Assembly (NCBI GenBank): GCA_024763185.1
Contig: JANTFY010000002.1
Coordinates: forward strand, 1-36,333
Direction of reading: 5' to 3'
Length of the DNA: 36,333 nt
DNA from: Gammaproteobacteria bacterium
Lineage (GTDB): Bacteria > Pseudomonadota > Gammaproteobacteria > GCA-001735895
Part shown: piece after piece, positions 1,080-29,563 of the stretch
Layout: each line of letters begins with the position of its first letter
Numbering within the stretch: the stretch's first letter is position 1
Made by a program: the position numbers and the translations under genes
The notes under the pieces: generated by a model
What the model saw: the letters and a program-made list of their open reading frames with translations, nothing else
Database searches by the model: none
What the model was told of the DNA's origin: nothing

Positions 1080-1148
1080 TTCGGGCATCCTGCCCTCCAC
1101 CCCTACGGGGTCAGCCTTAGGCTGTTTAAAATCGTTTCCGACGATTTT
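1080..1148 (+). repeat. Copy B of a ~68-nt multi-hairpin repeat element, inserted in the transposase between QRFGSAL and NLNVHFH
   Basis: Sequence ttcgggcatcctgccctccacccctacggggtcagccttaggctgtttaaaatcgtttccgacgatttt. Four consecutive hairpins: GGGCA/TGCCC, CCCC/GGGG, CAGCC/GGCTG, AAAATCGT/ACGATTTT. About 78% identical to the reverse complement of 1467-1533 by my hand alignment. Confidence 0.85.
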
Positions 1149-1466
1149 ATCAAAGCACTGCCAAAACGTTGAATCAGCGTCACTGATCCGGTTTGCGCTG
1201 TTTTTCGGGTATAGCCGGATTTTTTGATCACATGGCCAGAAATTGCCCGATATACTATCCCAAGCGCTCTACTCATTAATTCCGGTCGGCTGGTAAAAAG
1301 AAACCGTAATTGAAATGGAAAACTTAATACCCTCGGCAATTGCTCCTGCATTGCCCTAATACATGCCATTCATGGCATTAACTGGCGTATGGATTGTTTT
1401 GGTAAAACCTCATTCACTAATAAAGCAGCACTTTCAGCCATACGCCTTACCCCGCAACTCGGGCAC

Positions 1467-1533
1467 AAAATCGTCTGGAGCGATTTTGAACAGTCGAAGA
1501 CTGGCCCAAAGGGCGGAGGGCTGGATGCCCGGA
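1467..1533 (-). repeat. Copy A of the same ~68-nt multi-hairpin element, opposite orientation, inserted between CKRRGF and CPSCG
   Basis: Reverse complement reads tccgggcatccagccctccgccctttgggccagtcttcgactgttcaaaatcgctccagacgatttt. The same four hairpins are kept (GGGC/GCCC, CCC/GGG, CAGTC/GACTG, AAAATCG/CGATTTT), with a compensatory change in the third stem relative to copy B. Confidence 0.85.
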
Positions 1534-1865
1534 GTAAAACCCTCTGCGCTTGCAGCTGAATGCGACCAGGTGCTCATGGTGGCAATGGGTGCATTGCACC
1601 CTCATGAATCCGTACTCCAATCGGCCACACTTGAGGAAGTCGTCAAACTCCTGTTGAACGTACAATGGCAATGCCTTGCCGTGACAGGTCATCATGTCCC
1701 TGAATTCTGGGTAATATCGTTCAACAATTTGATATAGAAGCGTCCTTTCAGGCTGATGACGCTGATAGAGTTGAGTTGGGGCTGATCCTTCCTTGATCGG
1801 TGCAGGTAACATGCGGCTCTCCTTTCCTTGGAGGGCCTTTTGTTCTCATAATATTCTCTATTAGA

Positions 1866-1938: not shown

Positions 1939-2208
1939 GTGAATATTATGGATGCTCTTTCTGCCAACGAGGCCAAAACCCACTTCGGCGATATGCTCTT
2001 AAAGGCTCAGCGTGCGCCGATTCAGATTAACAAGAATGGCAAGCCGGTAGCCGTTGTGATCTCGGCAGAGGAGTACGAGAGCATCGAGGCATTGAAACTT
2101 CGGCTGTTACAATCCCGGCTCGCCCAGGCTCAGGCCGATATTGCCGCCAGCAATTTGATTGATGGTGAGGCGTTCTTTGATGAACTGGAATCGGGTAAAC
2201 ACGACTGA
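1939..2208 (+). CDS. Phd/YefM-family type II antitoxin
   Basis: 89 aa. The N-terminus (SANEAKTHFGDMLLKAQRAPIQINKNGKPVAVVISAEEYESIEALK) is typical of Phd/YefM. It lies directly upstream of a ParE-like toxin. The start may be GTG 1939 or ATG 1948. Confidence 0.85.
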   Translation: MNIMDALSANEAKTHFGDMLLKAQRAPIQINKNGKPVAVVISAEEYESIEALKLRLLQSRLAQAQADIAASNLIDGEAFFDELESGKHD

Positions 2209-2237: not shown

Positions 2238-2546
2238 GTGCCAAACTACCGCCTAACACCGGACGCAAAAGCTGACCTTATCGAAATACGCGGTTACACC
2301 TTCGAGCAGTGGGGTGCCGATCAGTCCAGAAAATATTTGTCCGATCTGCGTCAGACCATTCGACTGCTAACCGAAACACCGTCCATTGGAAAAGCACGTC
2401 CTGATGTTGGAGCCAATGTAATGAGCTTTCCCCATGTCAGCCATGTCATTTACTACGTTATTCATAAAAAAGAGCTAGTGGTATTTGGTGTACTGCATAA
2501 ACGGATGGTGCCAGTCAAACACCTGATCGATCGGGACACGATTTAA
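2238..2546 (+). CDS. ParE/RelE-superfamily type II toxin (ParE-like)
   Basis: 102 aa with a GTG start, 29 nt after the antitoxin stop. Typical ParE pattern: YRLTPDAKADLIEIRGYTFEQWG ... VIYYVIHKKELVVFGVLHKRM. Confidence 0.8.
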   Translation: MPNYRLTPDAKADLIEIRGYTFEQWGADQSRKYLSDLRQTIRLLTETPSIGKARPDVGANVMSFPHVSHVIYYVIHKKELVVFGVLHKRMVPVKHLIDRDTI

Positions 2547-3405: not shown

Positions 3406-3478
3406 AAAAACCCCCCCCCGAAAGCAGGGTCTTTTTTAATCCGATTACATCAATTGCTTCTTATAAACCAGAAGCAAT
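3406..3478 (-). terminator. 3' hairpin region of the cold-shock gene
   Basis: Perfect 9-bp stem ATTGCTTCT/AGAAGCAAT (3453-3478) lies 21 nt after the stop. Next comes a GC stem flanked by A- and T-runs around a C9 tract (3406-3437). Confidence 0.45.
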
Positions 3479-3498
3479 CAACGCGAATAGAAATTAAA

Positions 3499-3702
3499 CT
3501 ATTCAGCTGTAACGTTTGCAGCCTGCGGGCCTTTAGGTCCTGATTCAACGTCAAAATTGACCGTCTGGCCTTCATTCAACACTTTGAAACCTGAACCCTG
3601 GATCGCAGAATAATGGACAAAAACGTCCGCACTGCCATCAGAAGGAGAAATAAAGCCGAAGCCCTTGGATTCGTTAAACCACTTAACGGTACCTGTAGTC
3701 AT
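3499..3702 (-). CDS. CspA-family cold-shock protein
   Basis: 67 aa. [15 protein letters not shown] (RNP1) and VFVHYSAI (RNP2). About 240 nt of upstream non-coding leader, as is usual for csp genes. Confidence 0.95.
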
Positions 3703-3941
3703 GATAATTACCTTTAAAAAATGAAAATATAATCATGTGCATATCACAACAAGGTAATTACAGGAAAGACCGGGGTGGAACTTCTGGCAAACTTAATGGA
3801 CGTGCAACTGATTGTAAAAAACCAACGCTTAATTGAATCTGCCAGGCATCTACAATTAAGGGTCAGCGTGATACAGTATATACCAAATAATTCACATTTC
3901 ACCTTTTTTTAAGGTGACCGGCATGGCTGCATAAAACTCTA

Positions 3942-18201: not shown

Positions 18202-19701
18202 CTAGTCGAGCTTAATGGAAGGTGTGTTTAATTCCAGGGAAGTTGATTCTACCGATTTCAGGTCATCCAGTGCTTCCTTCCGCCCGGACGGATTAGCAAA
18301 ACTGTCATTCAACTTTTGTACAAAGTGCCCTGAATTCTCGATCACAGCCTGAATCTTTCGAGCGGTGCGCCGGCTCCACCCGACCGGTGAGGTATTGAAT
18401 ACACTCCTCCAGATACTGGTATTTTTATCAAAAGCCGTTACCAGATTACCTGGCATGTCAGAACGCGGTAAATGCCTGGATATGGTGGAAGCCCAGAATT
18501 GGCGTGTAAACAGATGCACGCCAAAAAATACGATAAAAACCAGCACTAGCGTTAAAACGCCGGTTAAAGGGTTTGCCTGATAAGAATCTATTAACGCGCT
18601 GGGTTTGAGGTAATGCCAGGCATCCTGCGTTGTAACCACGTAGGCAAATAAGCCAAGTAGCAGGCCGTAAATAACGGTATTACTGATCAATACGCGATTA
18701 CTCCACTTGCGAATAGCCTCTTTCAGGGCCGGTACCGCTTTGGTTTCTATATCATTGGCGGTTTTTTCAAGTGCTCCGATAATTCGGTAAGCCCTCTCAG
18801 TCTCAACCTGCTGCATGCGGTCATAAATCGCATCCAGGTCGGCATCTTTTTTGGTCTTAAAACGTTCCTGAAGTTTTCCATCACTGATATTGATGGCCGA
18901 GGCTTCATCATAGATCATGTAAAACTTTCCAGCCGTCAGCCCGCTTTGCGACAAAGCTCGTTGCCAGGCACCGACGACCTCTTCCGGATTATCTTCTTTA
19001 GCAGCCGTATCAATCTGATTAAGAATATATAAAAACTTGCTGGAGTCGGTTCGCTGAATGGTTTTAGTGACCAGGTGTTCCAGGGTATCCTTCATCGCAC
19101 CGGGCTCAGGATGACGGGCATCAAAAAACACCAAAACCAGGTCTGAAAGATCAATAATATGGTCGGTAATTCTCAGGGTTGAGTTGCGTTGGGCATCCGC
19201 GTCAAAACCGGGTGAATCGATTAGTATCTTGCCCTTGATAGGTTGTGTGGGACTGGTTTTTAGCTGCAGGTAGGCATTCACCCTTTCACCCTCTCCCGGA
19301 GCAACCTTTTCGATATCTTCACTGATATTAAAAAACGGAAATCGCGGGTCTGCATCAAGAGCCAAGCCGGGTAAAACCCGCGAGCTGTTATCATTGGTAT
19401 AACAAATCACCGTGAATTTATCATCAACAGCCTGATTGCCGGATGACTGTAGCTTTGTACCCAGAAAAGAATTGATAAAGGTGGATTTACCGGCGGAAAA
19501 GGTCCCCAATACAGAGATTAATGGCCACCAGGGTATCTGTGTGGCATAAGATTCATCCCGCGATATCAGGCCCATTCGATAGGCTATATTGTCCAGTTCC
19601 TTGAAACTTTTTACCGCCTCAATAAGGATTGGGTTTTCCTGCTTAAGGTGTTTTTCGAGATTTTTAAGACGGTTCTCTATCGCTTTCCTGGGGTAGAACA
19701 T
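18202..19701 (-). CDS. Membrane-anchored dynamin-like GTPase
   Basis: 499 aa. G1 GTFSAGKST, G3 DSPG, G4-like NQID. Two adjacent hydrophobic helices sit near residues 345-400 (VIYGLLLGLFAYVV, VLTLVLVFIVFFGVHLF). The start is 32 nt downstream of the preceding gene. Confidence 0.7.
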   Translation of the reverse strand: MFYPRKAIENRLKNLEKHLKQENPILIEAVKSFKELDNIAYRMGLISRDESYATQIPWWPLISVLGTFSAGKSTFINSFLGTKLQSSGNQAVDDKFTVICYTNDNSSRVLPGLALDADPRFPFFNISEDIEKVAPGEGERVNAYLQLKTSPTQPIKGKILIDSPGFDADAQRNSTLRITDHIIDLSDLVLVFFDARHPEPGAMKDTLEHLVTKTIQRTDSSKFLYILNQIDTAAKEDNPEEVVGAWQRALSQSGLTAGKFYMIYDEASAINISDGKLQERFKTKKDADLDAIYDRMQQVETERAYRIIGALEKTANDIETKAVPALKEAIRKWSNRVLISNTVIYGLLLGLFAYVVTTQDAWHYLKPSALIDSYQANPLTGVLTLVLVFIVFFGVHLFTRQFWASTISRHLPRSDMPGNLVTAFDKNTSIWRSVFNTSPVGWSRRTARKIQAVIENSGHFVQKLNDSFANPSGRKEALDDLKSVESTSLELNTPSIKLD

Positions 19702-19733
19702 AAACGGTGATATGATGGATTGTATGGATTTTG

Positions 19734-20180
19734 TTAGGGTATAAAACCGGTAAACATGCCCATCGGTTTGGATAAGTCACGCATATCACGGCGCATATAG
19801 TAGGTGGAAGCCGCCATTGAATTGGTGTTGTAGGTCATGGTAGCAACATTCTGCGTCATACTTTTGATATTGTTATCCATGTTGCCAATATTATTACCCA
19901 TTTTGACCATGGTGTGATCCATGGTTCTGACGGTATTAGTTAATTCATTCATATTTCTGTCAACTGATATCGTCAGAGTGGTGATCGTCAGACTCAGGTT
20001 GTGTACGTCGCGAGATAAGGTGTAAATCAGATAAAACCCATAAACCGCTAAAACAATGAAAGCAATCATCGAAGGATAAACAATCAATTCCCAGCGCTTG
20101 GCACTGTTTTCAAACGTATCGGCTAAACGCTCCATACATTCGTTATCAAGATTTATCTTGGGTTCAGATTTATTCATCAA
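19734..20180 (-). CDS. Single-pass membrane protein with a Met/Asn-rich heptad coiled coil, unknown family
   Basis: 148 aa. TM at about residues 31-55. After it, Met occupies the same heptad position seven consecutive times (residues 87, 94, 101, 108, 115, 122, 129). Confidence 0.6.
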   Translation of the reverse strand: MMNKSEPKINLDNECMERLADTFENSAKRWELIVYPSMIAFIVLAVYGFYLIYTLSRDVHNLSLTITTLTISVDRNMNELTNTVRTMDHTMVKMGNNIGNMDNNIKSMTQNVATMTYNTNSMAASTYYMRRDMRDLSKPMGMFTGFIP

Positions 20181-20383
20181 TATTCTCAGAGTAAATTTAT
20201 CGGATAAACTAATAACAGTGTTATATAACTAATAAAATTATACGTGAAAATGTAAAAATTATCGACCTCTTTATATTAACAATTGCTAATATATTAATGT
20301 GCATTAACCGATCAGCGTAATAGAAAGCCCAACTATTGCTTTGTTGGTTTTTATATAGAAAGGATGTGGCAGCCAGGTTTCGA

Positions 20384-20989
20384 TTATTGCATCAACTTTC
20401 TTTTAAGTTCTTCACCCAGTTCTCTGTTCATAGCCGTCACCGGTGAGACCAATTGTCGGGCATGCTCGTATTGATTGTTTTTAATTAACGCCATGGCTGC
20501 CTGATAGTAATGGCGGGCTGCATTCGGAAAATCATTCAACGCATAATAAATATTACCCAATTCTCCGAGGTAATCTGCATTATCTTTTTCTTTCTGTATC
20601 AATTGTTGATAACTGGCGATGGCTTTTTGATAGTCTTTATCCCAGTAAGCCTTACGAGCCTGAAAAAGTAATTCATCCTGCTCAATGATTACTTCTGAAA
20701 CCGTTGGTTGGCTCTCTATGAAAACTACTTCTTTTTGATCCGATACAGAAGTTTGTTGTTCTCTTGAAACAATGCTTTCGGGCTGACTTTCAACGGATTC
20801 ATTTTTGGCCGGTTGTGTTTGGTCTTTTTCAGGCTCAACAGTACGGCTTAGAGTTTTATCATCAAGATTTAATAACTGTTGATAAGCCTGTTCAAGCTGT
20901 AACTCTTCACGAAAGTAGTAACCTAAAATCATCAGGCTAACCAAAAATATTGAAAAGCTATGGATTAGCAACCAACGTCCGAAAGTCAT
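20384..20989 (-). CDS. Membrane-anchored TPR-repeat protein
   Basis: 201 aa. N-terminal TM (LLIHSFSIFLVSLMILGYY), an acidic/polar linker, and C-terminal TPR-like repeats (AYWDKDYQKAIASYQQLI, LGNIYYALNDFPNAARHYYQA). Starts 10 nt after the ParA-like gene. Confidence 0.65.
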   Translation of the reverse strand: MTFGRWLLIHSFSIFLVSLMILGYYFREELQLEQAYQQLLNLDDKTLSRTVEPEKDQTQPAKNESVESQPESIVSREQQTSVSDQKEVVFIESQPTVSEVIIEQDELLFQARKAYWDKDYQKAIASYQQLIQKEKDNADYLGELGNIYYALNDFPNAARHYYQAAMALIKNNQYEHARQLVSPVTAMNRELGEELKRKLMQ

Positions 20990-20999
20990 GACGGTTTTC

Positions 21000-21635
21000 T
21001 CACTTTTTTGCCGGGTAAAGCTGTTTGGCCAAGTTCAATACTTCCCTGGCTGCCTTACTGGTGGGTTGCATTTCAAAAACCGCCAGACCTTCACTGAAAG
21101 AACGTCGGTAAGCTGTTCTCTGGTAGAGACGCAAATCGATACGGTCGATATGTTTAAGGAAATTTAATGCCTCTTCTGCCTCGTCTGTTTCGCGAACGCC
21201 CCAATGCGTATCCGCGCGGTTGATAAATCCCAGGACTGGTGGCATTTTTTCAGCACTGCCGGACACTTCACGAATAATTTTCAGAAATCTCTGAGTAGAC
21301 CAGATATCAGCCTGACTTGGGGGTACGGGAGTTATAATTCGATCAGCCAGTTTCAATGCTTTTTTCATTGAATCGAAATCCGATGTACCAACATCAACGA
21401 TAACTTCGGTTTTTTTATTTTTCCAGGATTTTAAGGCCGATACATCGTCAAAAACTTCCAGATCAGGATCGTAGCCTTCCTCTTCCCTAATATCGACCAC
21501 GTCTGCCAGAGTTTTTTGGGGATCCAGGTCAAACAAGGTGATAGAACCCTGCTTAATTTTCAACCAGACTGCAAGGTTAAAAGCAACCGTGCTTTTTCCT
21601 GTGCCTCCTTTCAGGTTTCCGATAACAGTAATCAT
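21000..21635 (-). CDS. Orphan ParA/MinD-family ATPase (short form, no HTH)
   Basis: 211 aa. Deviant Walker A GNLKGGTGKST with the signature Lys, A' DLDPQ, and Walker B VIVDVG. Confidence 0.8.
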   Translation of the reverse strand: MITVIGNLKGGTGKSTVAFNLAVWLKIKQGSITLFDLDPQKTLADVVDIREEEGYDPDLEVFDDVSALKSWKNKKTEVIVDVGTSDFDSMKKALKLADRIITPVPPSQADIWSTQRFLKIIREVSGSAEKMPPVLGFINRADTHWGVRETDEAEEALNFLKHIDRIDLRLYQRTAYRRSFSEGLAVFEMQPTSKAAREVLNLAKQLYPAKK

Positions 21636-21740
21636 ACTTGGTGATGTCTTATGTCTTATTTATTATTGATGCATGAATTAATTTGTGAAAACGTGCATGA
21701 ATCGTTGCAGAGAAGATAGCAGCAAAACAGTATTTAGATA

Positions 21741-22493
21741 TTATTTCACCGCGTTAACTTTGTCGTTTTCAATTATTTTTTTTTCGTAACCTACCGGTAT
21801 AGTAAAGAGCTTATCAGGAATATTTTCAACCACTATATGTTTCAACTCCTGAGAATTTCCATTTGAAAAAGTTTCACGAATGCTGATTTTCAATTCTTTA
21901 TCAAACCATTGCAGACTTTCCTGTACTTCCCCATTGGACAGCTTGATTCGCTGCACCCACTTCTCTGTATCCCGGTTGTCTATTTTCTCACTGCCCAGCC
22001 ATTCCAGCTCGATGGATGTACCGTTAAATAAAGTATGTTTTACCGGTATCATTAATTCCGAATCGAGCCATAGATGCGAAATCAGTTCCTTATCTCCTTC
22101 GTGAGCAATAATCTTCCATTGAATAGCCTGGCGATTATTCAACTCCTGCTTCCCCAGATTTTCACATTTCAGGGCTTTATTACCTTCACAGGGTGAGTCA
22201 ACAGCACTTTCTATACCGATATTAATCTCTTCCAGCGACTTGTTCTCGTAACATAATTGCTGGTCGGTAAAACACATCAGGCTGATGTGCTTATTGGCAT
22301 CAAGTATTTGAATAACCGGCTCTCCATAATAAAAAAATTCCTTACGGATTCGCCCTGATGAGTAATAAAGCTGAGTTGAAATATCTGCCCGCCCCGGAGT
22401 GGACATGACAGCATTGGCGGAAAACTGGATAGCCTGAACAGGTGATGCAAAAAAACAGAGTTGTAACAACAGAATAAAGATAAAAGGCTTCAT
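21741..22493 (-). CDS. Secreted/periplasmic protein with two Cys pairs, unknown function (possibly a LolA-like beta fold)
   Basis: 250 aa. Signal peptide ...FFASPVQA|IQ. Cys pairs CFTDQQLC and CEGNKALKC. An alternating beta-strand-like pattern fills the rest. Starts 2 nt after the preceding gene. Confidence 0.6.
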   Translation of the reverse strand: MKPFIFILLLQLCFFASPVQAIQFSANAVMSTPGRADISTQLYYSSGRIRKEFFYYGEPVIQILDANKHISLMCFTDQQLCYENKSLEEINIGIESAVDSPCEGNKALKCENLGKQELNNRQAIQWKIIAHEGDKELISHLWLDSELMIPVKHTLFNGTSIELEWLGSEKIDNRDTEKWVQRIKLSNGEVQESLQWFDKELKISIRETFSNGNSQELKHIVVENIPDKLFTIPVGYEKKIIENDKVNAVK

Positions 22494-22495
22494 TT

Positions 22496-23137
22496 TTAGA
22501 ACATGTTGAACGGTGTGAATGGAAAATCAAGTTTGTCTTCACCACCTAATCCGGGCATGATGCCATTAAAAAATGGTCCCATCATTGCCGGGTTAGTGTC
22601 GCGGAAAATACCATCGGTATATTTGGACTGAAATTCATCCATGCCTCCAAAACCAGGCATGCCGGTACTACCCGGAGGATTATAATAATTAGGATGGCGT
22701 GGATAGATACCAGGGCTTGTACCATAACCAGCATTACCGGCAGGATACCTGCCTGACAAATCCCAGGGATTTGAAGAAATATCACTGGCAGGAGGAAGCG
22801 CTGGTGGCAGACGTCGTTCCGATTCCTGTTCAGCCCAGGGATTATATGGACCATTCACCTGACCATATTGTGGGAACCTGGGAGTATGCTCACGCACGAA
22901 GTTGTAGTGCGGAAAATTGTATCGCTGAGGTGGCTCGACTGTAGTACTTTCCGGTGAAAATTTCATGTTCTCCTGCATTTTAGAGTCCGCATGTTTGTTG
23001 CTCTGAACAGTACCCGACAAGGTTCCGGGAGCGGTCAACAGAATCGTTTTCGAAGCATCTTGTTCAGCGATATTTGCCTCGGCAAAAACTCCGGTGGGAA
23101 TCAACAAAAAAATGTTGATCATCAACTGTTTAATCAT
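22496..23137 (-). CDS. Secreted low-complexity Pro/Tyr/Asn/Gly/Met-rich protein 2
   Basis: I chose the start at the internal ATG 23137 (MIKQLMINIFLLIPTGVFA|EA signal peptide), 1 nt after the upstream stop. The longer track ORF (to 23302) would overlap the upstream gene. No Cys. Motifs FPQYGQ, YNPW, MPGFGG and IMPGLGG. Confidence 0.65.
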   Translation of the reverse strand: MIKQLMINIFLLIPTGVFAEANIAEQDASKTILLTAPGTLSGTVQSNKHADSKMQENMKFSPESTTVEPPQRYNFPHYNFVREHTPRFPQYGQVNGPYNPWAEQESERRLPPALPPASDISSNPWDLSGRYPAGNAGYGTSPGIYPRHPNYYNPPGSTGMPGFGGMDEFQSKYTDGIFRDTNPAMMGPFFNGIMPGLGGEDKLDFPFTPFNMF

Positions 23138-23138
23138 A

Positions 23139-23768
23139 CTAACGTCCGGAAAAGAATTGTTGCATCGGCATAACTGACCAGGGAGTCGGCATCGAGTTAT
23201 AAGGACTGTCCATTGAATTGTAACGGTTAGAGTAGTCGTACATATAGGGATTGACATAACCGCCCTGAGCATAAGGATATGGAGCTGTGGGCCACGTTCC
23301 ACCTTGATACGGCAATTGCCCCTGATGATATTGAGGAAACTGGGATTGTTGACCTATCGACCAGGGATTATTATAGGGAGGATAATTCGCTGCGGGGGGC
23401 ATATTTCTCGGGCCTGGTTCTAAGGCCTGAGTTTCATAACCCGCTGTAGGTGCGCCCTGAATAAAGCCCTGATCAGTCTCTGGTGGCATTTCGGCTTGTA
23501 AGCCTTTATCAGCACTACCAGGAAAGGACTGACTGCCCTTTTCAACAGTAGACTGAGTCTGTGTCTGCATAGAGTCCTGATGAATTAAATCTTCGGTAGG
23601 GAACTTATAGATCTGGGGTTGTTGTACCGAGTTTTTTTCCACGCTATTTATTATCACAGACGACTGGTAGGGTCCAGTAGGTGGTGGCACATATTCATTA
23701 GCAATTGCCAAAGGCGAAACCAGTAACAGCAAAGCTGTCAAACTCAATCCTACTGCATTCATTTTCAT
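23139..23768 (-). CDS. Secreted low-complexity Pro/Tyr/Asn/Gln/Met-rich protein 1
   Basis: 209 aa. Signal peptide ...VSPLAIA|NEY. No Cys. The C-terminal half reads PPYNNPWSIGQQSQFPQYHQGQLPYQGGTWPTAPYPYAQGGYVNPYMYDYSNRYNSMDSPYNSMPTPW. Starts 15 nt after the RND gene. Confidence 0.65.
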   Translation of the reverse strand: MKMNAVGLSLTALLLLVSPLAIANEYVPPPTGPYQSSVIINSVEKNSVQQPQIYKFPTEDLIHQDSMQTQTQSTVEKGSQSFPGSADKGLQAEMPPETDQGFIQGAPTAGYETQALEPGPRNMPPAANYPPYNNPWSIGQQSQFPQYHQGQLPYQGGTWPTAPYPYAQGGYVNPYMYDYSNRYNSMDSPYNSMPTPWSVMPMQQFFSGR

Positions 23769-23783
23769 AACAACCTCACAAAA

Positions 23784-26700
23784 CTAGTCATCATCAATAT
23801 CAGACTTTAAGCGAATGCCTCTTCGATGACCAGATTTTGATTTATCAGAAGTATTTTTAGTAGTGGATGATTTTTTCACCGACTTTTTCAGCGCTGGCTT
23901 CTTAGTTTCAGCGGTAGCTTTTGCTGCCTCTTTTTTGGCCGTTTTCTTTTTTACCACTTTTTTAGCGGCTGGCTTTATAACTGGTTTGGATGTTGTATCA
24001 TCCAGATTAACATCACCTGAATTTTCATTTTCTGACGGTTTATCTGCCACTTGATCAACCATTGGTGAATCCAAATCGACATCCGTATCTGCAGATTGTG
24101 TCTTCGTGGTTATCTCTTTTTTGGTTTCTGTCGCCACTTTTTGCTCGGACGTTGAATCCAATGCTGCCGCTTGTTCTTTTAACTGAGATGCTGCTGGCTG
24201 CGCGGGTTTAAGCGCGGCAGGCGGATTTTCTTTATGAGCGCTTTTACGCGTCAACAATCGAATCAGGCTTTTTGTCAATGCCACAATGAAGTCCCAAAAG
24301 GCAACCACCAGGGAGAGGATGACTATCCAGATAAAATTAATAGTTGCCGCCAGATAATCGATCAGGCCTTTTTCATCCTCTTCTTTTTTTGTCGGCTCAT
24401 ATTCTCCGGACAGAATCGGATCATGGGGTAAGTCCGCATATACCGCAGCGCCACTGGCATCGATGGTTTTTTCAGCAAATGCCTTGCGTACAGAGATTGC
24501 ACCCAGCGGAATAACCACCAGTGTCAAAACGGTGGAAACCAGTACACCGAAAGCCAGCGAAATAGCCATTCCTTTGAAGATCGGATCAAAAATGATGACA
24601 CCTGAACCACCCACCAGGGCCAGGGCTGTCACCACGATGGGCCGGGTCCTGGCCTTACAGGCCAACAATACCGAGTCAGTGACCGGCCGACCATCTTCGA
24701 TTTCATGCTTGGTGAAATCCACCAACAGAATCGAGTTACGTACGATAATACCGGCCAGTGCGATGAAGCCAATCATAGACGTAGCTGTAAATTCGGCCCC
24801 GAATAACCAGTGACCGGGAATGATACCCACCAATGTTAAGGGTATCGGCGCCATAATGACAGCCGGCAGGCTGAAATTACCGAATTCCATCACCACCAGC
24901 ATATAAATCAGAATAATCGCCGCGCCAAATGCCATACCCATATCTCTGAAAGTTTCATAGGTAACAGTCCATTCACCGGCCCATTCAAAACCCGATTGCG
25001 AATCCGATTCGGGAGGCGCCGTCCAGGTGCCCTTCAGCTCAATACCATCCGGCGAGGTATAATTCTCCAGGGAATCAATAACATCGAACATGCCATAAAT
25101 CGGGGCCCCCAGGCGCCCCTGGGTTTCACCGGTTACATATTCAACACGGCGCAAATCCTTATGGTAGATGACCTGTTCCTGGTCTATCTGATAGAAATCG
25201 CCCAACTCACCGAGTGGAACTGTTCCTCCAAATTGACTCGGGACAGGCATCTCTTTTAAACGAGGTAAATCAGCCCTGACTTCGATAGGCACCTGCATCA
25301 CAATAAAGGTAGGCTCGAGTTTGTAACCACTTTTCACGTCTCCCAGAATATAGTCGCCCAGGGACATTTGTAAGGTTCGGTTTATGGTGTCAACTGAAAT
25401 GCCACGCCTGACCGCTTTTTCGGTCTCTACTTCAAATCGCCAAACCTTGTAGGGATCGGCTATAAGCGTATCAACATCGGTGATGTTGGACGATTCAATG
25501 AATTTTTGCTCCAGATCCCTGGCAACCTGTCGTCGAATCTCGTCATCCGGTCCATACACCTCAGCTACCACGGACTGCAGCACAGGAGGCCCCGGCGGCA
25601 TCTCGACGACCTGTATCTTAACCAGGTCATTGCCTTCAATGACTTTCAATAATCGCGCTCTTGCATCTTCTGCTATTTGGTGGCTGCTGCGCTTACGATC
25701 CTTTTTATCAAGTAGCAACACCTGGATGTCCGCTTCCCAAGGTTGGGAACGCAGGTAATAATGGCGTACCAGACCGTTAAAATTAAATGGAGAAGCTGTT
25801 CCCACGTAGGTCTGTAAAGAAGTTACTTCTTCAATTTCCAGCAGGGTATTGGATAGTTCATTGACCACATTTGCCGTCAATGGCAGTGCGGTGCCTTCTT
25901 TCATGTTTACAACCACGTTGAATTCGGGTTTGTTATCCAGGGGTAACATCTTGACCGGCACACTCTTAGTGTAAAATAGGGATATACACAAAAAGAACAC
26001 CACAAACAGGCTGATTAAAAACAAACGTCCCTTGGTTTTGCTGGTAATCAGTGGGATCAGGGTTTTACGAAAAAGCTTACCCAACCATTCATTCTGGGTA
26101 TGCTCAGATTCCTCCATTTCCTTGAGTTTTTCCATGGAGGGTTTGATGCGCATGGCCAGCCACGGGGTAAACATAAAGGCGGCAAACACGGAGAATAGCA
26201 TGGCGAATGAACCCAATGCCGGGATTGGCTCCATATAAGGCCCCATCATACCGCGCACAAAACCCATGGGTAGTAGCGCCGCGATAACGGTCAGCGTCGC
26301 CAGAATGGTGGGATTACCCACTTCACGTACCGCATCAATAGCTATATCGGTATCGGTACTTTCATCAATTAACCATCGACGATAGATATTCTCGACAACC
26401 ACAATGGCATCATCGACCAGTATACCGATGGAGAATATCAAGGCGAAAAGACTGACACGATCAATGGTATAGCCGGTCAGCAACGCATAAAAAACGGTCA
26501 CCAGGATTACCACCGGAATAACAATCGCCACAACCAGTGCCGGTTCCCAGCGGAAGTTTAATGCTGCCCAGATCAACACGACCACGATGCCGGTAGCAAT
26601 AAACAGCTTAAGAATCAGTCCATTTACCTTGTCTTCGGCGGTTTTACCATAGTTACGTGTTATCTCAACGTGGATATCTTCAGGAATAACATTCCCCTTC

Positions 26701-27707
26701 ATACCTTCGACTTTAGCCAGGATATCCTCGGCTACCTTGACGCCATTGGAGCCTTTCTTCTTGGCAATCGCCACAGTAACGGCTGAAGCGGCATAGGCTT
26801 CTTCTTGGCCTTCAGCAAGTTGGGCGGGAGCGGTATAATAGTTAACGATTCGTGTGGTATCCGATGGAGCAGCCGTGACCTTGGCGATGTCCCGAACATA
26901 AACTGGGGAACCATCTTTGATGGTCACAACCAGGCTTTCCACGTCTCGCTCAGTTTTCAGGAAAGAACCTGAATAGACCTTTGAACTCTGGTCGCTCTGT
27001 TCAATACTGCCTAAACCCAGTTGGCTATTCGCGGTACGGATTGTCTGGGCGATCTGATCCAGACTTATGTCGTAACCCGACAATTTTTCCGGAAGTACTT
27101 CTATTTTTAACTGATCTGGACGCCCACCCACGACAAACCCCTGACTGGCATTTTCCACCGAACTGATATTTTGCAGAATATCCAAGCCTACCAAACGCAA
27201 TACAGAATCGTCATGATGGTTAGACCACAAGGTAATAGTCACCACCGGTACATCATCCACACCTTTCGGTTTTACCAGTGGTTGATCAACACCGGGAGGT
27301 ATTTTGTCCATGTTGGAAGAAATCTTGTCGTAGAGTTTGACCAGGGAATCCTCCAGAACCTCACCCACATCAAACTGGACAGTAACCATACCCTGGTCTC
27401 GCATGGCCGCGGCATAAACATGATCCACACCAGACATTTCACTCAGCATGCGCTGCAGCGGTTCGGTAGCCAGCGAGGCCACCTGTTGTGCCGAGGCACC
27501 CTTATAACTGACAAAAACATCGACCATCGGCACGGAAATCTGGGGATCTTCCTGACGTGGTGTCAGCATCACGCCCACCAAACCCAAGGCAAAGCAGGCT
27601 ACAAGTAAAAGAGGAGAAAGTGGTGAATGAATAAACGCTTTCGCCAGGCCACCGGCTATACCCAATGATTTGTTTTTTTGATTGTCGCTAGTAGGTTGAT
27701 TTGTCAT
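23784..27707 (-). CDS. RND-superfamily efflux permease (AcrB-like core) with a ~230-aa C-terminal extension
   Basis: 1307 aa. AcrB-type architecture: N-terminal TM, two large periplasmic loops and 12 TM segments. Then an extra ~30-residue hydrophobic segment and a Lys/Ala/Thr-rich disordered tail. Confidence 0.85.
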   Translation of the reverse strand: MTNQPTSDNQKNKSLGIAGGLAKAFIHSPLSPLLLVACFALGLVGVMLTPRQEDPQISVPMVDVFVSYKGASAQQVASLATEPLQRMLSEMSGVDHVYAAAMRDQGMVTVQFDVGEVLEDSLVKLYDKISSNMDKIPPGVDQPLVKPKGVDDVPVVTITLWSNHHDDSVLRLVGLDILQNISSVENASQGFVVGGRPDQLKIEVLPEKLSGYDISLDQIAQTIRTANSQLGLGSIEQSDQSSKVYSGSFLKTERDVESLVVTIKDGSPVYVRDIAKVTAAPSDTTRIVNYYTAPAQLAEGQEEAYAASAVTVAIAKKKGSNGVKVAEDILAKVEGMKGNVIPEDIHVEITRNYGKTAEDKVNGLILKLFIATGIVVVLIWAALNFRWEPALVVAIVIPVVILVTVFYALLTGYTIDRVSLFALIFSIGILVDDAIVVVENIYRRWLIDESTDTDIAIDAVREVGNPTILATLTVIAALLPMGFVRGMMGPYMEPIPALGSFAMLFSVFAAFMFTPWLAMRIKPSMEKLKEMEESEHTQNEWLGKLFRKTLIPLITSKTKGRLFLISLFVVFFLCISLFYTKSVPVKMLPLDNKPEFNVVVNMKEGTALPLTANVVNELSNTLLEIEEVTSLQTYVGTASPFNFNGLVRHYYLRSQPWEADIQVLLLDKKDRKRSSHQIAEDARARLLKVIEGNDLVKIQVVEMPPGPPVLQSVVAEVYGPDDEIRRQVARDLEQKFIESSNITDVDTLIADPYKVWRFEVETEKAVRRGISVDTINRTLQMSLGDYILGDVKSGYKLEPTFIVMQVPIEVRADLPRLKEMPVPSQFGGTVPLGELGDFYQIDQEQVIYHKDLRRVEYVTGETQGRLGAPIYGMFDVIDSLENYTSPDGIELKGTWTAPPESDSQSGFEWAGEWTVTYETFRDMGMAFGAAIILIYMLVVMEFGNFSLPAVIMAPIPLTLVGIIPGHWLFGAEFTATSMIGFIALAGIIVRNSILLVDFTKHEIEDGRPVTDSVLLACKARTRPIVVTALALVGGSGVIIFDPIFKGMAISLAFGVLVSTVLTLVVIPLGAISVRKAFAEKTIDASGAAVYADLPHDPILSGEYEPTKKEEDEKGLIDYLAATINFIWIVILSLVVAFWDFIVALTKSLIRLLTRKSAHKENPPAALKPAQPAASQLKEQAAALDSTSEQKVATETKKEITTKTQSADTDVDLDSPMVDQVADKPSENENSGDVNLDDTTSKPVIKPAAKKVVKKKTAKKEAAKATAETKKPALKKSVKKSSTTKNTSDKSKSGHRRGIRLKSDIDDD

Positions 27708-27761
27708 TGTAGAGTTACTAGTTGGTTATTGGTTAGATCTGTTAGCTCTGATGAGAGCAGA

Positions 27762-28931
27762 CTAACCATTAGAGCCGGATGAAATATTTTGTAGATCTGG
27801 TGACCAGCCGGATTTGATCGTTTTGGGTGGGTCACTGATTATGCGGTCACCGGTTTTGATGCCGGAAAGCACGGTGACTCTGGATTTATCATATTCCGAG
27901 CCCAGACGAACAATTTTCATTCGAGCTTTGTTTTCATCATCCAATATATAAACAATTGGTAGACTACCGCGGTAAATCACAGCATTTTTAGGAATCACTG
28001 GAACCGGCTTTTTAACGGAGGAAGTGTCATTGATGGTCACTTCCGCATACAGGCCCGGACCACCGGGAGAACCTTCAGGCAAATCAAATTTTACGGTAAC
28101 CGTATGTTTTTGTTGATCGGCGACTGGATATATTTGCGCCACCTTGGCCTTGGTATAAGTATTGTTAATGTCGAGCTTGACATCCACCAGGCTACCTTTG
28201 GTCAGGCCGAATATAAGTTTTGCGGGTACTTCAGCCTGAATTCTGAGGTATTGCGTATGGGCAAATTTCAATAAAGGTGTACCCGGTTGTACCGTATCAC
28301 CCTCTTCCACCATTTTTCGGACCAGTTTGCCATCAAATGGAGCGATGGCCCGAGCATCACGTAATTTGGCATCGAGTTCATCCAGAGCGGAGCGGGCAGC
28401 CAAAACTGCCGACTCGGCATTTTTAACCTGCGCACCGGATGAATATAAATCGCCATAGCGTTCGATATCTGAGTTGCCCACACCCATCGCGTTACCCATG
28501 TTCCGTGTAAAAACGTTGTCAAATAAATTGGGCAGGCCCATACCGGGCATTGTGGTCAGGCTTTCACTACGCGGGGAAATCAACTCTCGTGAATACTGTA
28601 CCCTGGCATTGCGTAAACTCGCTTCAGCATTGGCCAGTTGGGCCAGTGCAGCACGACGTTTCGCGACCAGATCATCGTCATCAATGGACAGTAACAGATT
28701 GTTTTTCTGGAAATAGTCGCCTTCAGAACCGGCAATATATTGAACCCTGCCTGGCACCTGGGCAGACAATGTGACTTCTTTATATGGAATTATCGTTCCA
28801 CCGATTTTTATACGGTTGCCAAATTCTGCGGCTTCAACAGTCATTAACTGCCACGCCTGAGGGGCTGAAGAAAATAACGTTAAAATCGTCCCCATTAACA
28901 GGGTAGATTTAAATGGATAATTTATATTCAT
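27762..28931 (-). CDS. RND periplasmic adaptor (membrane fusion protein, HlyD/AcrA family)
   Basis: 389 aa. Signal/anchor sequence, lipoyl-like half motifs (VTLSAQVPGRV ... IAPFDGKLV), an alpha-hairpin with a non-helical insert, and beta-barrel and MP domains. Lies directly upstream of the RND gene. Confidence 0.85.
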   Translation of the reverse strand: MNINYPFKSTLLMGTILTLFSSAPQAWQLMTVEAAEFGNRIKIGGTIIPYKEVTLSAQVPGRVQYIAGSEGDYFQKNNLLLSIDDDDLVAKRRAALAQLANAEASLRNARVQYSRELISPRSESLTTMPGMGLPNLFDNVFTRNMGNAMGVGNSDIERYGDLYSSGAQVKNAESAVLAARSALDELDAKLRDARAIAPFDGKLVRKMVEEGDTVQPGTPLLKFAHTQYLRIQAEVPAKLIFGLTKGSLVDVKLDINNTYTKAKVAQIYPVADQQKHTVTVKFDLPEGSPGGPGLYAEVTINDTSSVKKPVPVIPKNAVIYRGSLPIVYILDDENKARMKIVRLGSEYDKSRVTVLSGIKTGDRIISDPPKTIKSGWSPDLQNISSGSNG

Positions 28932-29563
28932 TGTTATATTACCAATATCAGCAAATCAGGCTTTTTTACCTGAGGTATTTATTTAACTGTGTAAGTAAAC
29001 TTTACAAAAAAGCTATATAGCCTTTATCGTCAATCATCGGCTTACGTATCTTCTACATAAAACCACCTTGCGTTAATGTGCGGTCATATTTGAGGACTGA
29101 TAGCTGATAGTTTTCAAGCAATTCAACCAGCATTTTCCTAGGATTGTAGTATTTCAATCCGGTTACAGATTTATGACACCTAAAATTTTCAAAAAACCTT
29201 CCTTGAAAAACTGAACCAAACTGAGTCCAGGTAAACTCTAGCTAACCCAGAAATCACGCATAAAATCCATGGTGCAAATAAACCAGCTGTTACCATAATA
29301 AGGAGCAGATAGAAGCAACACCTTGTTGGTAAAAACATGTTTTTATATTCTTGGGCTATATACGACCTTAAGAAAAACCCATTCTGAAGCAGTGAAGTCT
29401 ATCAAGAAATCACTATATTGGCACAATAAATTATGCCTGTTTTTTACAACGATCCTTCATTCAGTTAACCAAAAAACTTGCGTATATTAGCATTTGTTAA
29501 TATTTAATACAAGTTAATAAGCGGCAAGGTGCTTGCATCGGGACTTAGCAAGCTTTTTAGAAA

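Follow-up and report, generated by a model that had tools for sequence, protein, structure and literature searches.

A cluster of 9 genes, all on the minus strand, lies within the 36,333-nucleotide stretch of gammaproteobacterial DNA analyzed here (the window). In the direction of transcription it encodes a periplasmic adaptor (membrane fusion protein, MFP), an RND permease, 2 secreted low-complexity proteins (LC1 and LC2), a Cys-paired periplasmic protein (Cys4), a ParA-like ATPase, a TM-TPR protein, a Met-rich membrane protein (MetZ), and a membrane-anchored dynamin-like protein (DLP). Successive genes are separated by gaps of 54, 15, 1, 2, 105, 10, 203, and 32 nt; the 203-nt gap is 29% GC and the 105-nt gap 31% GC, against 45% for the cluster. 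The flanks are housekeeping genes: pyrG-kdsA-eno-ispD on one side, and Bax1-I/YccA, tRNA-Ser, and an SNF transporter on the other. The cluster contains no outer-membrane factor, TetR, or two-component gene. The observation made in the first-pass annotation, which described these genes, their gaps, and their domains, is confirmed. All 9 are real genes, since each has conserved homologues in many other loci.

Features of the 9-gene cluster, with positions counted from the first letter of the window
Feature	Position	Strand	Description
MFP	27762-28931	-	Periplasmic adaptor, 389 aa; signal or anchor sequence, no lipobox Cys
Adaptor hairpin-tip insert	28437-28583	-	Residues 117-165, ...TMPGMGLPNLFDNVFTRNMGNAMG...
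RND permease	23784-27707	-	1307 aa; complete ACR_tran core (residues 23-1068) plus 239-aa C-terminal tail
Extra hydrophobic segment of the pump	24252-24365	-	38 residues (1115-1152) after TM12; hairpin or in-plane helix
Disordered tail of the pump	23787-24251	-	Last 155 residues of the tail; Lys-rich, histone-H1-like composition
RRGIRLK motif	23805-23825	-	Invariant short linear motif near the pump C-terminus
LC1	23139-23768	-	Secreted Pro/Tyr/Gln-rich protein, 209 aa
PPPTGPY motif of LC1	23667-23687	-	Just after the signal peptide
LC2	22496-23137	-	Secreted Pro/Gly/Asn/Tyr-rich protein, 213 aa; conserved islands LLTAPGT, QYGQ, NPW, GIYRDTNPA, and FPFxPFxMF at the C-terminus
Cys4	21741-22493	-	Periplasmic protein, 250 aa; predicted LolA-superfamily fold, DUF4412-like; 4 Cys invariant within its lineage
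Promoter-like site	21662-21689	-	10 of 12 matches; 105-nt gap upstream of the ParA-like gene
ParA-like ATPase	21000-21635	-	ParA/MinD family, 211 aa
Deviant Walker A of the ATPase	21588-21611	-	KGGTGKST
TM-TPR protein	20384-20989	-	201 aa; N-terminal TM (MTFGRWLL...), acidic disordered linker
C-terminal TPR pair	20387-20692	-	
Promoter-like site	20237-20265	-	10 of 12 matches; 203-nt AT-rich gap upstream of MetZ
MetZ	19734-20180	-	Single-pass membrane protein, 148 aa; Met/Asn-rich coiled coil; conserved ends (SAKRWELIVYPS...TM; C-terminal RPMxxMxxFMP(W))
DLP	18202-19701	-	Membrane-anchored dynamin-like GTPase, 499 aa; G3 DSPG, G4 NQID
G1 motif of DLP	19480-19506	-	GTFSAGKST
TM hairpin of DLP	18496-18693	-	Residues 337-402

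The adaptor and permease belong to recognizable families but depart from them in specific places. The adaptor scores 181 bits against TIGR01730 (RND_mfp; cutoff 94.9), its nearest PDB entry is TriA/TriB 6vej, and it is conserved next to the RND gene in every cluster with enough sequence. The family profile aligns in 2 pieces that skip the hairpin tip, where residues 116-166 correspond to only TriA 102-120. This insert carries a GGMGxPNLFD motif, and the pattern GGMGxPxLFDxxFT is conserved in about 35 adaptors of the family. The permease matches Pfam ACR_tran (E 2.7e-131) yet falls below the NCBIfam cut-offs of every named subfamily; its nearest PDB entries are TriC, CmeB, and MexK at about 195 bits. 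Residues D432, D433, R990, and R1022 are invariant in 35 family members, and the pump looks active. A sequence and hydropathy scan revealed the extra hydrophobic segment after TM12, comparable to segments visible in the pumps of 2 homologous loci, L017 and L018 (loci retrieved for comparison carry the prefix L). Neither the topology of this segment nor that of the tail was determined. The whole 239-aa tail (residues 1069-1307) is 14.6% Lys, and its best Pfam match is HC2 histone H1-like at 18 bits, below threshold. A tail of variable sequence is present at every complete pump 3' end in the loci, measuring about 150-320 aa in the 25 loci where its length could be obtained. Near its end lies a short motif: R[RK]GI[RKQ]LK occurs 39 times in the six-frame translation of all loci, and every copy listed among complete ORFs (38) lies at a pump C-terminus. 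The remodeled hairpin tip and pump C-terminus, both proposed in the first-pass annotation, are real and are conserved signatures of the family.

LC1, LC2, and Cys4 have no significant Pfam or NCBIfam match. The motif PP[PA]xGPY of LC1 is found only in the ORF immediately downstream of the pump, in the window lineage and in L018, L039, L079, L098, and L100. Identity of LC1 to close relatives is only 31-42%, against 75-88% for neighboring genes; for LC1 and LC2 together, the comparison within the window lineage gave 31-51% against 70-88%, the pattern expected of structural coat proteins. The ATG start of LC2 is preferred to a longer GTG ORF (22496-23302) that overlaps LC1 and is not supported by the homologues, which start at MIKQL; the conserved islands come from an alignment of 13 homologues. 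The 4 Cys residues of Cys4 were identified in an alignment of its lineage. Its AF2 model has a mean pLDDT of 85.8, and the top Foldseek hits are LolA3 9tp6, NE2245 3buu, RseB, and EPDR1, with E about 1e-6 and TM about 0.4. No sequence match to any solved structure was found, but orthologues in L017 and L018 pass the DUF4412 threshold, and there are 266 representative clusters at E<=1e-10. A LolA-like fold typically binds hydrophobic ligands.

The ATPase matches Pfam CbiA, MipZ, and AAA_31, and scores 124 bits against NF041546, below its cutoff of 180. Its nearest PDB entries are McdA, Soj, and ParF, and it is 54-85% identical in the other clusters. The TM-TPR protein matches Pfam TPR_19 and TPR_2; family members keep the N-terminal RW(L/I)L-TM and the motif GELGN(I/V)Y, while the linker varies widely in length. 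MetZ has only a weak DUF948 match (30.7 bits, below threshold). Some members of its family alignment carry long Lys-rich N-terminal extensions, from which we infer an N-in topology with the coil in the periplasm. DLP scores 55 bits against Dynamin_N (threshold 27), and its nearest PDB entries are EHD4 and EHD2; AF2 helices at residues 310-460 have pLDDT 84-95, but the GTPase domain is poorly modeled. The promoter-like sites in the 2 larger gaps are consensus matches only, and the total number of such sites is not above the shuffled expectation. Met enrichment, claimed in the first-pass annotation for 4 of the proteins, holds for MetZ (10.8%) and is modest for LC1 and LC2 (4.7-4.8%); it does not hold for the adaptor as a whole (2.3%), only for its hairpin insert.

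The first-pass annotation proposed a machine that exports or organizes a proteinaceous periplasmic or surface matrix or inclusion, positioned by ParA/TPR and accompanied by membrane remodeling, and it specified in advance that a failure of the 9 genes to be conserved together would overturn this reading. The opposite was found, and the interpretation is supported. The same gene set recurs in more than 30 loci. Of 32 loci with at least 9.5 kb upstream of the DLP gene, 27 carry RND and ParA, and most of these also carry MFP, MetZ, TPR, and DUF4412. The linkage is seen in at least 9 of 22 distinct downstream contexts and in 2 architectures: one collinear, the other with DLP divergent from p131-MFP-RND-LC-DUF4412-LC-ParA-(TPR)-MetZ. 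Sampling was anchored on DLP and Cys4, so the frequency of the pump or ParA without them was not measured. Four DLP loci (L062, L086, L092, and L094) lack the rest of the cluster, and one complete MAG has DUF4412-ParA-TPR-DUF302-MetZ-DLP without an adjacent pump. A further condition set beforehand, that profile searches might place the low-complexity or Met-rich proteins in characterized families with unrelated roles, was also examined, and no profile search did so. The 3 sub-blocks drawn in the first-pass annotation are nevertheless not the natural units, but are interleaved: DUF4412 travels with ParA when the pump is absent (L099), and in the divergent architecture MetZ lies in the pump-ParA operon rather than beside DLP.

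Sulfur-globule envelope proteins, offered in the first-pass annotation as a compositional analogy only, become a real link in the homologous clusters. Genes at or above the gathering score of 26.7 for Pfam SGP (sulfur globule protein; PF17228) lie at the LC2 position in 4 other lineages: L018 (46.0), L096 (44.6), L100 (29.5), and L079 (27.1). Weaker hits occur in L072 and in a second L100 gene, and a truncated L073 ORF matched only an SGP profile built for this analysis, not PF17228. SGP genes were found in only 4-6 of roughly 25 non-redundant clusters. The window itself has no SGP-family gene, LC2 shows no detectable homology to SGP (hhalign probability 1%), and no sulfur-oxidation gene lies in the 36 kb. 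All named carriers of the cluster are thiotrophs: Sedimenticola sp., Ca. Sedimenticola endophacoides, and Ca. Vondammii HM_W22, the Sclerolinum tubeworm endosymbiont (PMC10300362). For the Solemya velesiana gill symbiont, the evidence is limited to a 57%-identical DLP homologue, whose locus was not examined.

No paper in the library searched describes this combination of genes, though its parts resemble several systems. Like the tripartite HAE-1 RND efflux pumps (AcrAB-TolC, TriABC-OpmH, and MexJK), the cluster has an adjacent adaptor and 12-TM permease with the full ACR_tran architecture, including the TM4 Asp-Asp and TM11 Arg of the proton relay; TriC/TriAB and MexK/MexJ are the nearest solved structures. 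It differs in that its scores fall far below all NCBIfam subfamily cut-offs, no outer-membrane factor is encoded in any cluster, the adaptor hairpin tip has a conserved insert of about 45 aa, Arg replaces the TM10 Lys, the pump has its extra segment and long tail, and the genes are embedded with ParA, DLP, LolA-like, and secreted low-complexity genes. LC1 and LC2 share with SgpA/B/C/D of Allochromatium vinosum Sec export and a low-complexity composition rich in aromatic residues and Gly/Pro, but do not match PF17228 and are not detectably homologous to it. The sgp genes of A. vinosum are scattered single genes. None of the papers found in our literature search mentions dedicated assembly, loading, or positioning genes for globules.

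The ATPase is comparable to ParA/MinD cargo-positioning systems, such as McdAB for carboxysomes and ParF/ParG, in being a small ParA-type protein with a deviant Walker A. The candidate cargo protein, the pump, has a histone-H1-like Lys-rich tail as in PhaM and PhaF, the nucleoid tethers of PHB granules, and a basic short motif resembling ATPase-stimulating peptides. Here, however, the cargo would be an inner-membrane pump linked to a periplasmic structure, there is no ParB or McdB homologue, and the partner motif sits at the C-terminus of a transporter. DLP shares a Dynamin_N domain with G1, G3, and G4 motifs and a membrane anchor with bacterial dynamin-like proteins (BDLP, DynA, LeoABC/Eleos, and IniA/IniC of the iniBAC operon) and eukaryotic EHD ATPases; iniBAC also pairs DLPs with a Gly-rich low-complexity protein and has been linked to efflux-pump activity. 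DLP is much shorter, has a C-terminal TM hairpin, is a single copy rather than a pair, shows only weak sequence similarity (20-27 bits), and is fixed in a cluster with an RND pump and ParA. Cys4 matches LolA/LolB/RseB-superfamily structures in predicted fold, but it has no link to the LolCDE system, has conserved disulfide-forming Cys pairs, and is encoded between coat-like proteins and ParA.

Among alternative readings, the strongest, though still doubtful, is that the module is a functional unit whose cargo is not sulfur. It would export a lipid or another hydrophobic envelope component, as the RND transporters HpnN and MmpL do for lipids, with DLP repairing or remodeling the membrane, the low-complexity proteins forming a periplasmic matrix, and the embedded SGP genes being secondary recruits in some thiotrophs. 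The LolA-like fold is best known for carrying lipid and lipoprotein acyl chains, bacterial dynamin-like proteins act on membranes (similarity of DLP to LeoA/LeoBC and EHD is weak), accessory genes of unknown function (DUF302 and p131) appear in many clusters, the window lacks SGP, and the sulfur metabolism of its lineage was not verified here. Against this reading, SGP-family genes occupy the same slot in 4 to 6 separate lineages, which is unlikely to be chance, the named carriers are thiotrophs, and the pump is closer to the HAE-1 type than to the HpnN/MmpL type.

Soft-metal (Cu/Ag) efflux and periplasmic sequestration, an alternative raised in the first-pass annotation, is weakly supported and very unlikely. 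A Cus-like pump helped by Met-rich periplasmic proteins would fit the Met content of MetZ, LC1, LC2, and the adaptor insert, as well as the weak CzcB and CusB similarity of the adaptor. However, the pump scores 213.6 bits against the 701 cutoff of the CusA/CzcA family, lower than its score against multidrug-type models (415.7 bits); no CusF, CopC, PcoE, or SilE-like domain, outer-membrane factor, or metal-sensing regulator occurs in any cluster; and ParA, DLP, the LolA-like protein, and SGP genes have no place in a metal pump. Least likely are 3 unrelated operons (a pump operon, a ParA-TPR pair, and a MetZ-DLP pair) held together by lineage-specific synteny: the conserved flanks within the window's own lineage, which on their own cannot separate synteny from linkage, the promoter-like sites, the 4 solitary DLP loci, and the ParA-DLP block without a pump in L099 would allow it, but it is largely refuted by retention of the set through rearrangement, in 2 gene orders and at least 9 unrelated contexts; a pump tail and motif found in all 38 complete family pump C-termini and nowhere else in the loci also speak against it.

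We favor, with moderate confidence, the reading that the 9 genes form one conserved, undescribed envelope module, found in sulfur-oxidizing Gammaproteobacteria and related uncultured lineages, that most likely builds, loads, and positions a periplasmic hydrophobic inclusion, most probably elemental-sulfur globules. Our analysis demonstrates the co-conservation of the gene set, the conservation of its motifs, and the presence of SGP genes inside homologous clusters; the cargo, the direction of transport, the contact between ParA and the pump tail, and the membrane remodeling are inferences, and that contact was not assayed. No RND pump is known to carry sulfur, and SUP05 bacteria make sulfur globules without any dynamin (PMC6509183), so the module cannot be universal for globule formation. 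In this view, a proton-driven pump and its modified adaptor sit in the inner membrane and would hand a hydrophobic cargo (S0 or polysulfane) to the periplasm, where the LolA-like carrier Cys4 and Sec-exported low-complexity proteins would receive or coat it; these coat proteins would be LC1 and LC2 here and true SGP proteins in other lineages. On the cytoplasmic side, the Lys-rich tail and its RRGIRLK motif would couple the complex to the nucleoid-bound ParA-like ATPase, spacing and segregating the deposits much as McdAB does for carboxysomes or PhaM/PhaF for PHB granules. The TM-TPR protein may act as an adaptor, possibly binding the aromatic C-terminal peptides of MetZ and the LC proteins, and DLP, together with MetZ, would remodel the inner membrane around the inclusion. 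The 9-gene cluster, a real unit that stays together in many uncultured and symbiotic sulfur-oxidizing bacteria, is probably undescribed machinery for building or positioning periplasmic sulfur deposits.

All nine minus-strand ORFs that the first-pass annotation described are present with the boundaries and gaps that it reported, and its observation therefore holds. For LC2, the ATG at 23137 is the real start; the longer GTG ORF overlaps LC1, and the 13 homologues all begin at MIKQL or its equivalent. Pfam and NCBIfam searches confirm the domain calls: an RND adaptor, a complete ACR_tran permease core followed by 239 extra residues, a small ParA/MinD ATPase, a TM-TPR protein, a membrane protein (MetZ) with a weak DUF948 match, and a Dynamin_N GTPase (DLP). 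LC1, LC2, and the Cys-paired protein (Cys4) have no significant match. The earlier claim of Met enrichment in several of the proteins is only partly borne out, since enrichment is strong only in MetZ (10.8%), modest in LC1 and LC2, and local in the adaptor insert. The flanks are housekeeping genes, with pyrG-kdsA-eno-ispD on one side and Bax1-I/YccA, tRNA-Ser, and an SNF symporter on the other. The two larger gaps are AT-rich (29% and 31% GC), and each contains one of the two best sigma-70-like matches on the minus strand, so internal promoters are possible; in the promoter and terminator scan, however, totals are not above background, and only the positions of these two sites are suggestive. 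Features of the window and of homologous loci (labelled L plus a number) are collected below.

Positions of features in the window and in homologous loci
Sequence	Position	Strand	Feature
Window	1-36333		Appears to be a whole contig; the window-encoded proteins are recorded on a longest contig of exactly 36,333 bp
Window	91-1812	minus	Fragments of a Y2-type (IS91-like) transposase, split over four short ORFs; the 91-804 piece hits Pfam Y2_Tnp; looks like a decayed mobile element at the contig end
Window	1939-2208	plus	Phd/YefM antitoxin, forming a type II toxin-antitoxin pair with the next gene, beside the transposase remnant
Window	2238-2546	plus	ParE toxin of the same pair
Window	3448-3829	minus	Rfam cspA thermoregulator (79.3 bits against a threshold of 78), in a 3.5-kb stretch with no long ORF
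Window	3499-3702	minus	67-aa cold-shock protein gene overlapped by the thermoregulator
Window	19734-19760		C-terminal codons of MetZ
Window	22496-22530		C-terminal codons of LC2
Window	22496-23302		Longer GTG ORF at LC2
Window	23139-23170		C-terminal codons of LC1
Window	28932-29563		632-nt AT-rich gap with no trace of the p131 gene
L001	3181-3627		Divergent copy of p131 (33% identity) between ispD and the adaptor gene, in a close relative of the window
L008	3100-3513		Divergent copy of p131 (33% identity) between ispD and the adaptor gene, in a close relative of the window
L005	8693-9202		Second Met-rich coiled-coil membrane protein (169 aa, with repeated MS/KSM units) downstream of the Bax1-I gene in a relative; possible MetZ paralogue, not present in the window
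L006	1-8759		MAG of the window's lineage in which the adaptor gene and the 5' half of the pump gene are missing, replaced by an ECF sigma/anti-sigma pair, a subtilase, and an M24 peptidase; the 3' half of the pump, including RRGIRLK, and the rest of the cluster remain
L017	2447-3220		Distant DUF4412 orthologue of Cys4
L018	7367-8131		Distant DUF4412 orthologue of Cys4
L079	8714-9322		Example of the extra membrane-anchored DUF302 protein

The first-pass annotation had itself proposed that failure of the nine genes to travel together in other genomes would count against a single system, and we examined this directly. Cys4 has about 100 homologue clusters, all from gammaproteobacterial MAGs, and a genome scan anchored on it returned 15 loci that carry all nine genes but also the same flanks. 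This set alone does not separate linkage from lineage synteny, since enolase is 76-86% identical across it. The arrangement in L006, which falls in this lineage, is either a real rearrangement or an assembly chimera.

The DLP reaches further, with 56-62% identical homologues in several lineages, and their loci show the same gene set in unrelated contexts. In Ca. Vondammii HM_W22, the cluster lies among transposases, with the DLP divergent from p131-MFP-RND-LC-DUF4412-LC-ParA. In a GC-rich MAG, it lies between a sigma-54 activator and uvrC, in collinear order. It is also present in Sedimenticola sp. and Ca. Sedimenticola endophacoides; the Solemya velesiana gill symbiont has a DLP homologue, the locus of which was not examined. 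A metagenome scan with a DLP alignment added 80 loci, which were mapped with profiles and tblastn. Of 32 loci with at least 9.5 kb upstream of the DLP gene, 27 carry both the pump and ParA. There are 2 architectures: one is collinear, as in the window, and in the other MetZ sits at the far end of the pump-ParA operon. Clustering of downstream genes gives 22 distinct contexts, and pump linkage is visible in at least nine of them.

There are exceptions. Four loci have the DLP alone, with glmS, a large unannotated ORF that we take to be a PBP, and similar genes upstream, and one complete 2.6-Mb MAG (L099) has DUF4412-ParA-TPR-DUF302-MetZ-DLP without an adjacent pump. Every locus was found through the DLP or Cys4; no pump-anchored or ParA-anchored survey was run, so how often the pump or ParA occur without them was not examined. 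We conclude that the nine genes are a co-inherited module and that the three sub-blocks into which they had been divided are not its natural joints. The interpretation of the cluster as one undescribed system is thus supported, whereas its function and mechanism are inference.

Accessory genes accompany the module in other genomes. The 131-aa protein p131 is seen in many clusters, including close relatives of the window, but is absent from the window itself. From its sequence we had considered an SCP2-like lipid carrier; Pfam and a PDB profile search found nothing, and this identity was dropped. Many clusters (L026, L039, L079, L096, L099, L100, and L101) also carry a membrane-anchored DUF302 protein of about 200 aa between TPR and MetZ, or beyond ParA, that scores 47.7 bits against Pfam DUF302 and is absent from the window.

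The pump has the complete architecture of an RND permease: Pfam ACR_tran covers residues 23-1068 against profile positions 3-1015 of 1021 (E 2.7e-131). The nearest structures are TriC, CmeB, and MexK, at only about 195 bits, and the protein falls below every curated NCBIfam subfamily cut-off. The best score is NF033617 at 415.7 bits against a cutoff of 1250, and TIGR00915 scores 277.6 against 940. The proton relay of AcrB consists of TM4 Asp-Asp, TM10 Lys, and TM11 Arg (D407/D408/K940/R971); in 35 family members, the equivalents D432, D433, and R1022 are invariant, and the TM10 position holds an invariant Arg (R990) instead of Lys. The pump is therefore probably an active proton-driven transporter. 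After TM12 comes a 38-residue hydrophobic segment, followed by a Lys-rich, fast-evolving tail whose composition resembles histone H1 (HC2, 18 bits, below threshold). At every complete pump 3' end in the loci, the tail ends in RRGI[RKQ]LK plus a short acidic stretch. The motif occurs 39 times in the six-frame translation of all loci, and the 38 copies listed among complete ORFs are all at pump C-termini. An invariant heptapeptide inside a variable disordered tail is the signature of a docking site.

The adaptor gene lies 54 nt upstream of the pump gene, and its product scores 181 bits against TIGR01730 (RND_mfp; cutoff 94.9). The hairpin helices are conserved, but the alpha-hairpin is not the uninterrupted one that would dock tip-to-tip on an outer-membrane factor: a conserved insert of about 45 aa (residues 117-165), with the family-wide motif GGMGxPxLFDxxFT, sits at its tip, and both the family profiles and TriA align around it. 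No TolC-family outer-membrane factor is encoded in the window or in any of the more than 30 clusters examined; one could still be encoded elsewhere in the genome, so that the existence of a third partner is left undecided by these data.

LC1 and LC2 each combine a Sec signal peptide with a low-complexity mature protein rich in aromatic residues and Gly/Pro. LC1 is always the gene directly after the pump, and it carries PP[PA]xGPY close to the signal-peptide cleavage site, a motif found nowhere else in the loci. LC2 has several short conserved islands and an aromatic C-terminus, FPFxPFxMF. Both evolve far faster than their neighbors (31-51% against 70-88% identity). MetZ, LC1, LC2, and the LC proteins of other clusters all end in short aromatic and Met-rich peptides (FMPW, PFNMF, QQFFSGR, YWPHW, FPWGW), which may be a shared docking signal, for example for the TPR domain, although binding was not assayed. 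MetZ keeps the motif SA(K/R)RWE-TM and a C-terminal RPMxFMNxFMPW. In one clade (the MetZ genes of L039, L044, L057, L070, L073, and L098), it carries a Lys/Ala/Pro-rich N-terminal extension of 150-230 aa whose composition echoes the pump's tail; such Lys-rich extensions argue, by inference, for an N-in topology with the Met-rich coil in the periplasm.

Cys4 is predicted to adopt a LolA-like open beta-barrel fold. The AF2 model is confident (pLDDT 85.8), and forty PDB matches have E<=0.001, led by LolA3, NE2245, RseB, and EPDR1 (E about 1e-6), though TM-scores are only about 0.4. The window protein itself falls short of the Pfam DUF4412 gathering score (13 bits against 21.6), whereas its orthologues in L017 (25.1) and L018 (23.2) pass. 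Of the four Cys invariant in the window's lineage, only the second pair (C102/C110) appears, as judged by eye, to be kept in these distant orthologues, and the first pair (MCF..Q..CY) seems to be lineage-specific. The subfamily has 266 representative clusters at E<=1e-10.

The ParA-like ATPase has the deviant Walker A sequence KGGTGKST at residues 9-16 and scores above threshold against Pfam CbiA (46 bits), MipZ (43.6), and AAA_31 (38). It is closest to McdA, Soj, and ParF, but it does not belong to the curated ParA partition equivalog (NF041546, 124.4 bits against a cutoff of 180), and no ParB or centromere-like partner is nearby. Two candidates for a partner with an ATPase-stimulating basic peptide were observed, the invariant RRGI[RKQ]LK at the pump C-terminus and the conserved N-terminal RW(L/I)L of the downstream TM-TPR protein; no interaction was tested. 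The TM-TPR protein keeps RW(L/I)L-TM and a C-terminal TPR pair, joined by a linker that varies widely in length.

The DLP has a dynamin-type GTPase domain (Dynamin_N, 55.1 bits against 27) with the G1, G3, and G4 motifs GTFSAGKST, DSPG, and NQID, and EHD proteins are its nearest solved relatives. Its AF2 model, built from a 15-sequence alignment, shows two hydrophobic helices at residues 337-402, read as a TM hairpin, and long helices at 275-469 with pLDDT 84-95. Mean pLDDT is 59 and the GTPase domain is below 50, so the model does not settle whether a helical stalk or bundle and a membrane-binding element are present, and it was not used for a fold search. A PADLOC search showed only weak LeoA/LeoBC GTPase similarity.

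The link to sulfur globules comes from the homologous clusters. In the collinear cluster of L018, the gene in the LC2 position hits Pfam SGP ("Sulphur globule protein," PF17228) at 46.0 bits, against a threshold of 26.7. A profile built from cluster SGPs, followed by Pfam checks, found further hits above threshold in L096 (44.6), L100 (29.5), and L079 (27.1), and hits below threshold in L072 (17.7) and a second gene of L100 (11.4). A truncated ORF in L073 has no PF17228 hit and was matched only by our own SGP profile (E 1.9e-5). All lie immediately upstream of DUF4412 or ParA; those at or above threshold lie between the pump or LC genes and DUF4412/ParA. The loci that carry SGP genes fall into several different downstream-context groups. 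The named organisms in which the cluster itself was seen, Sedimenticola sp., Ca. Sedimenticola endophacoides, and Ca. Vondammii, are all sulfur-oxidising (for Ca. Vondammii, PMC10300362).

This link has clear limits. We considered whether LC1 and LC2 are divergent SGPs and rejected it: neither hits PF17228 even at E up to 5, and hhalign of the LC2 and LC1 families against five cluster SGPs gives probabilities of 1-2%. They are positional analogues only, and their presence on sulfur globules was not measured here. No sulfur gene lies in the 36-kb window, and one weak DsrE hit 7 kb from the cluster in L099 is not regarded as informative. In addition, SUP05 stores sulfur without any dynamin (PMC6509183). 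Nonetheless, SGP genes at or above threshold occupy the equivalent position in four homologous clusters.

Whereas the co-inheritance of the genes and the motifs and SGP hits described here are direct observations, the mechanism we consider most likely is inferred. In this view, a hydrophobic cargo, most plausibly S0 or polysulfane, is moved by the pump and its modified adaptor to a periplasmic deposit, which is received by the LolA-like protein and coated by SGP, LC1, and LC2. On the cytoplasmic side, the pump's H1-like tail and RRGIRLK motif would couple the complex to the nucleoid and to the ParA-like ATPase; this would space and segregate the deposits, by analogy with McdAB and PhaM/PhaF. 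The TPR protein may read the aromatic C-termini of MetZ and the LC proteins, and the DLP and MetZ would shape the membrane around the deposit. In its most far-reaching form, which we regard as tentative, the cluster is a dedicated organelle-type machine for periplasmic sulfur globules: a specialised RND pump loads S0 or polysulfane into a protein-coated globule through the adaptor and a LolA-like carrier, and the same pump is tethered across the inner membrane to the nucleoid and to ParA. In this way, a periplasmic inclusion would be spaced and inherited using the chromosome as a ruler, while a membrane dynamin shapes the surrounding membrane.

Among the alternatives, it is plausible that the cargo is a lipid or another hydrophobic compound rather than sulfur. 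Cu/Ag handling is weakly supported: the pump does not score as CusA/CzcA family (TIGR00914, 213.6 bits against a cutoff of 701.45, lower than its score against multidrug-type models), and no periplasmic metallochaperone, outer-membrane factor, or metal-responsive regulator is found among the nine products or in the homologous clusters. The reading of unrelated neighboring operons is largely refuted by the co-conservation, and anti-phage defence is rejected on the PADLOC result.

How sulfur bacteria deposit, enclose, position, and later mobilise stored elemental sulfur is a long-standing open question. In the papers found, only the coat proteins SgpA-D are described: the SgpD study names only these as globule proteins and, in the passages retrieved, mentions no assembly or positioning genes, and we found no description of a loading, assembly, or positioning machine. 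Searches of the literature on sulfur globules, dynamins, RND and efflux systems, ParA, Allochromatium, and Sedimenticola returned no paper, in the library searched, that links these components; a Thiomargarita preprint merely lists dynamin genes. The parts belong to known families, but the system as a whole has no described counterpart.

The module offers concrete candidates in organisms of ecological weight, including chemosynthetic symbionts of tubeworms and clams, Sedimenticola, and uncultured marine lineages. It would also be the first case of a ParA-type system positioning an inner-membrane transporter and, through it, a periplasmic structure, and the first of an RND pump carrying a nucleoid-type tail and a dedicated docking motif. 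Even if the cargo turns out not to be sulfur, a widely conserved unit combining an RND pump, ParA, a dynamin, a predicted LolA-like protein, and secreted disordered proteins is a new kind of envelope system.
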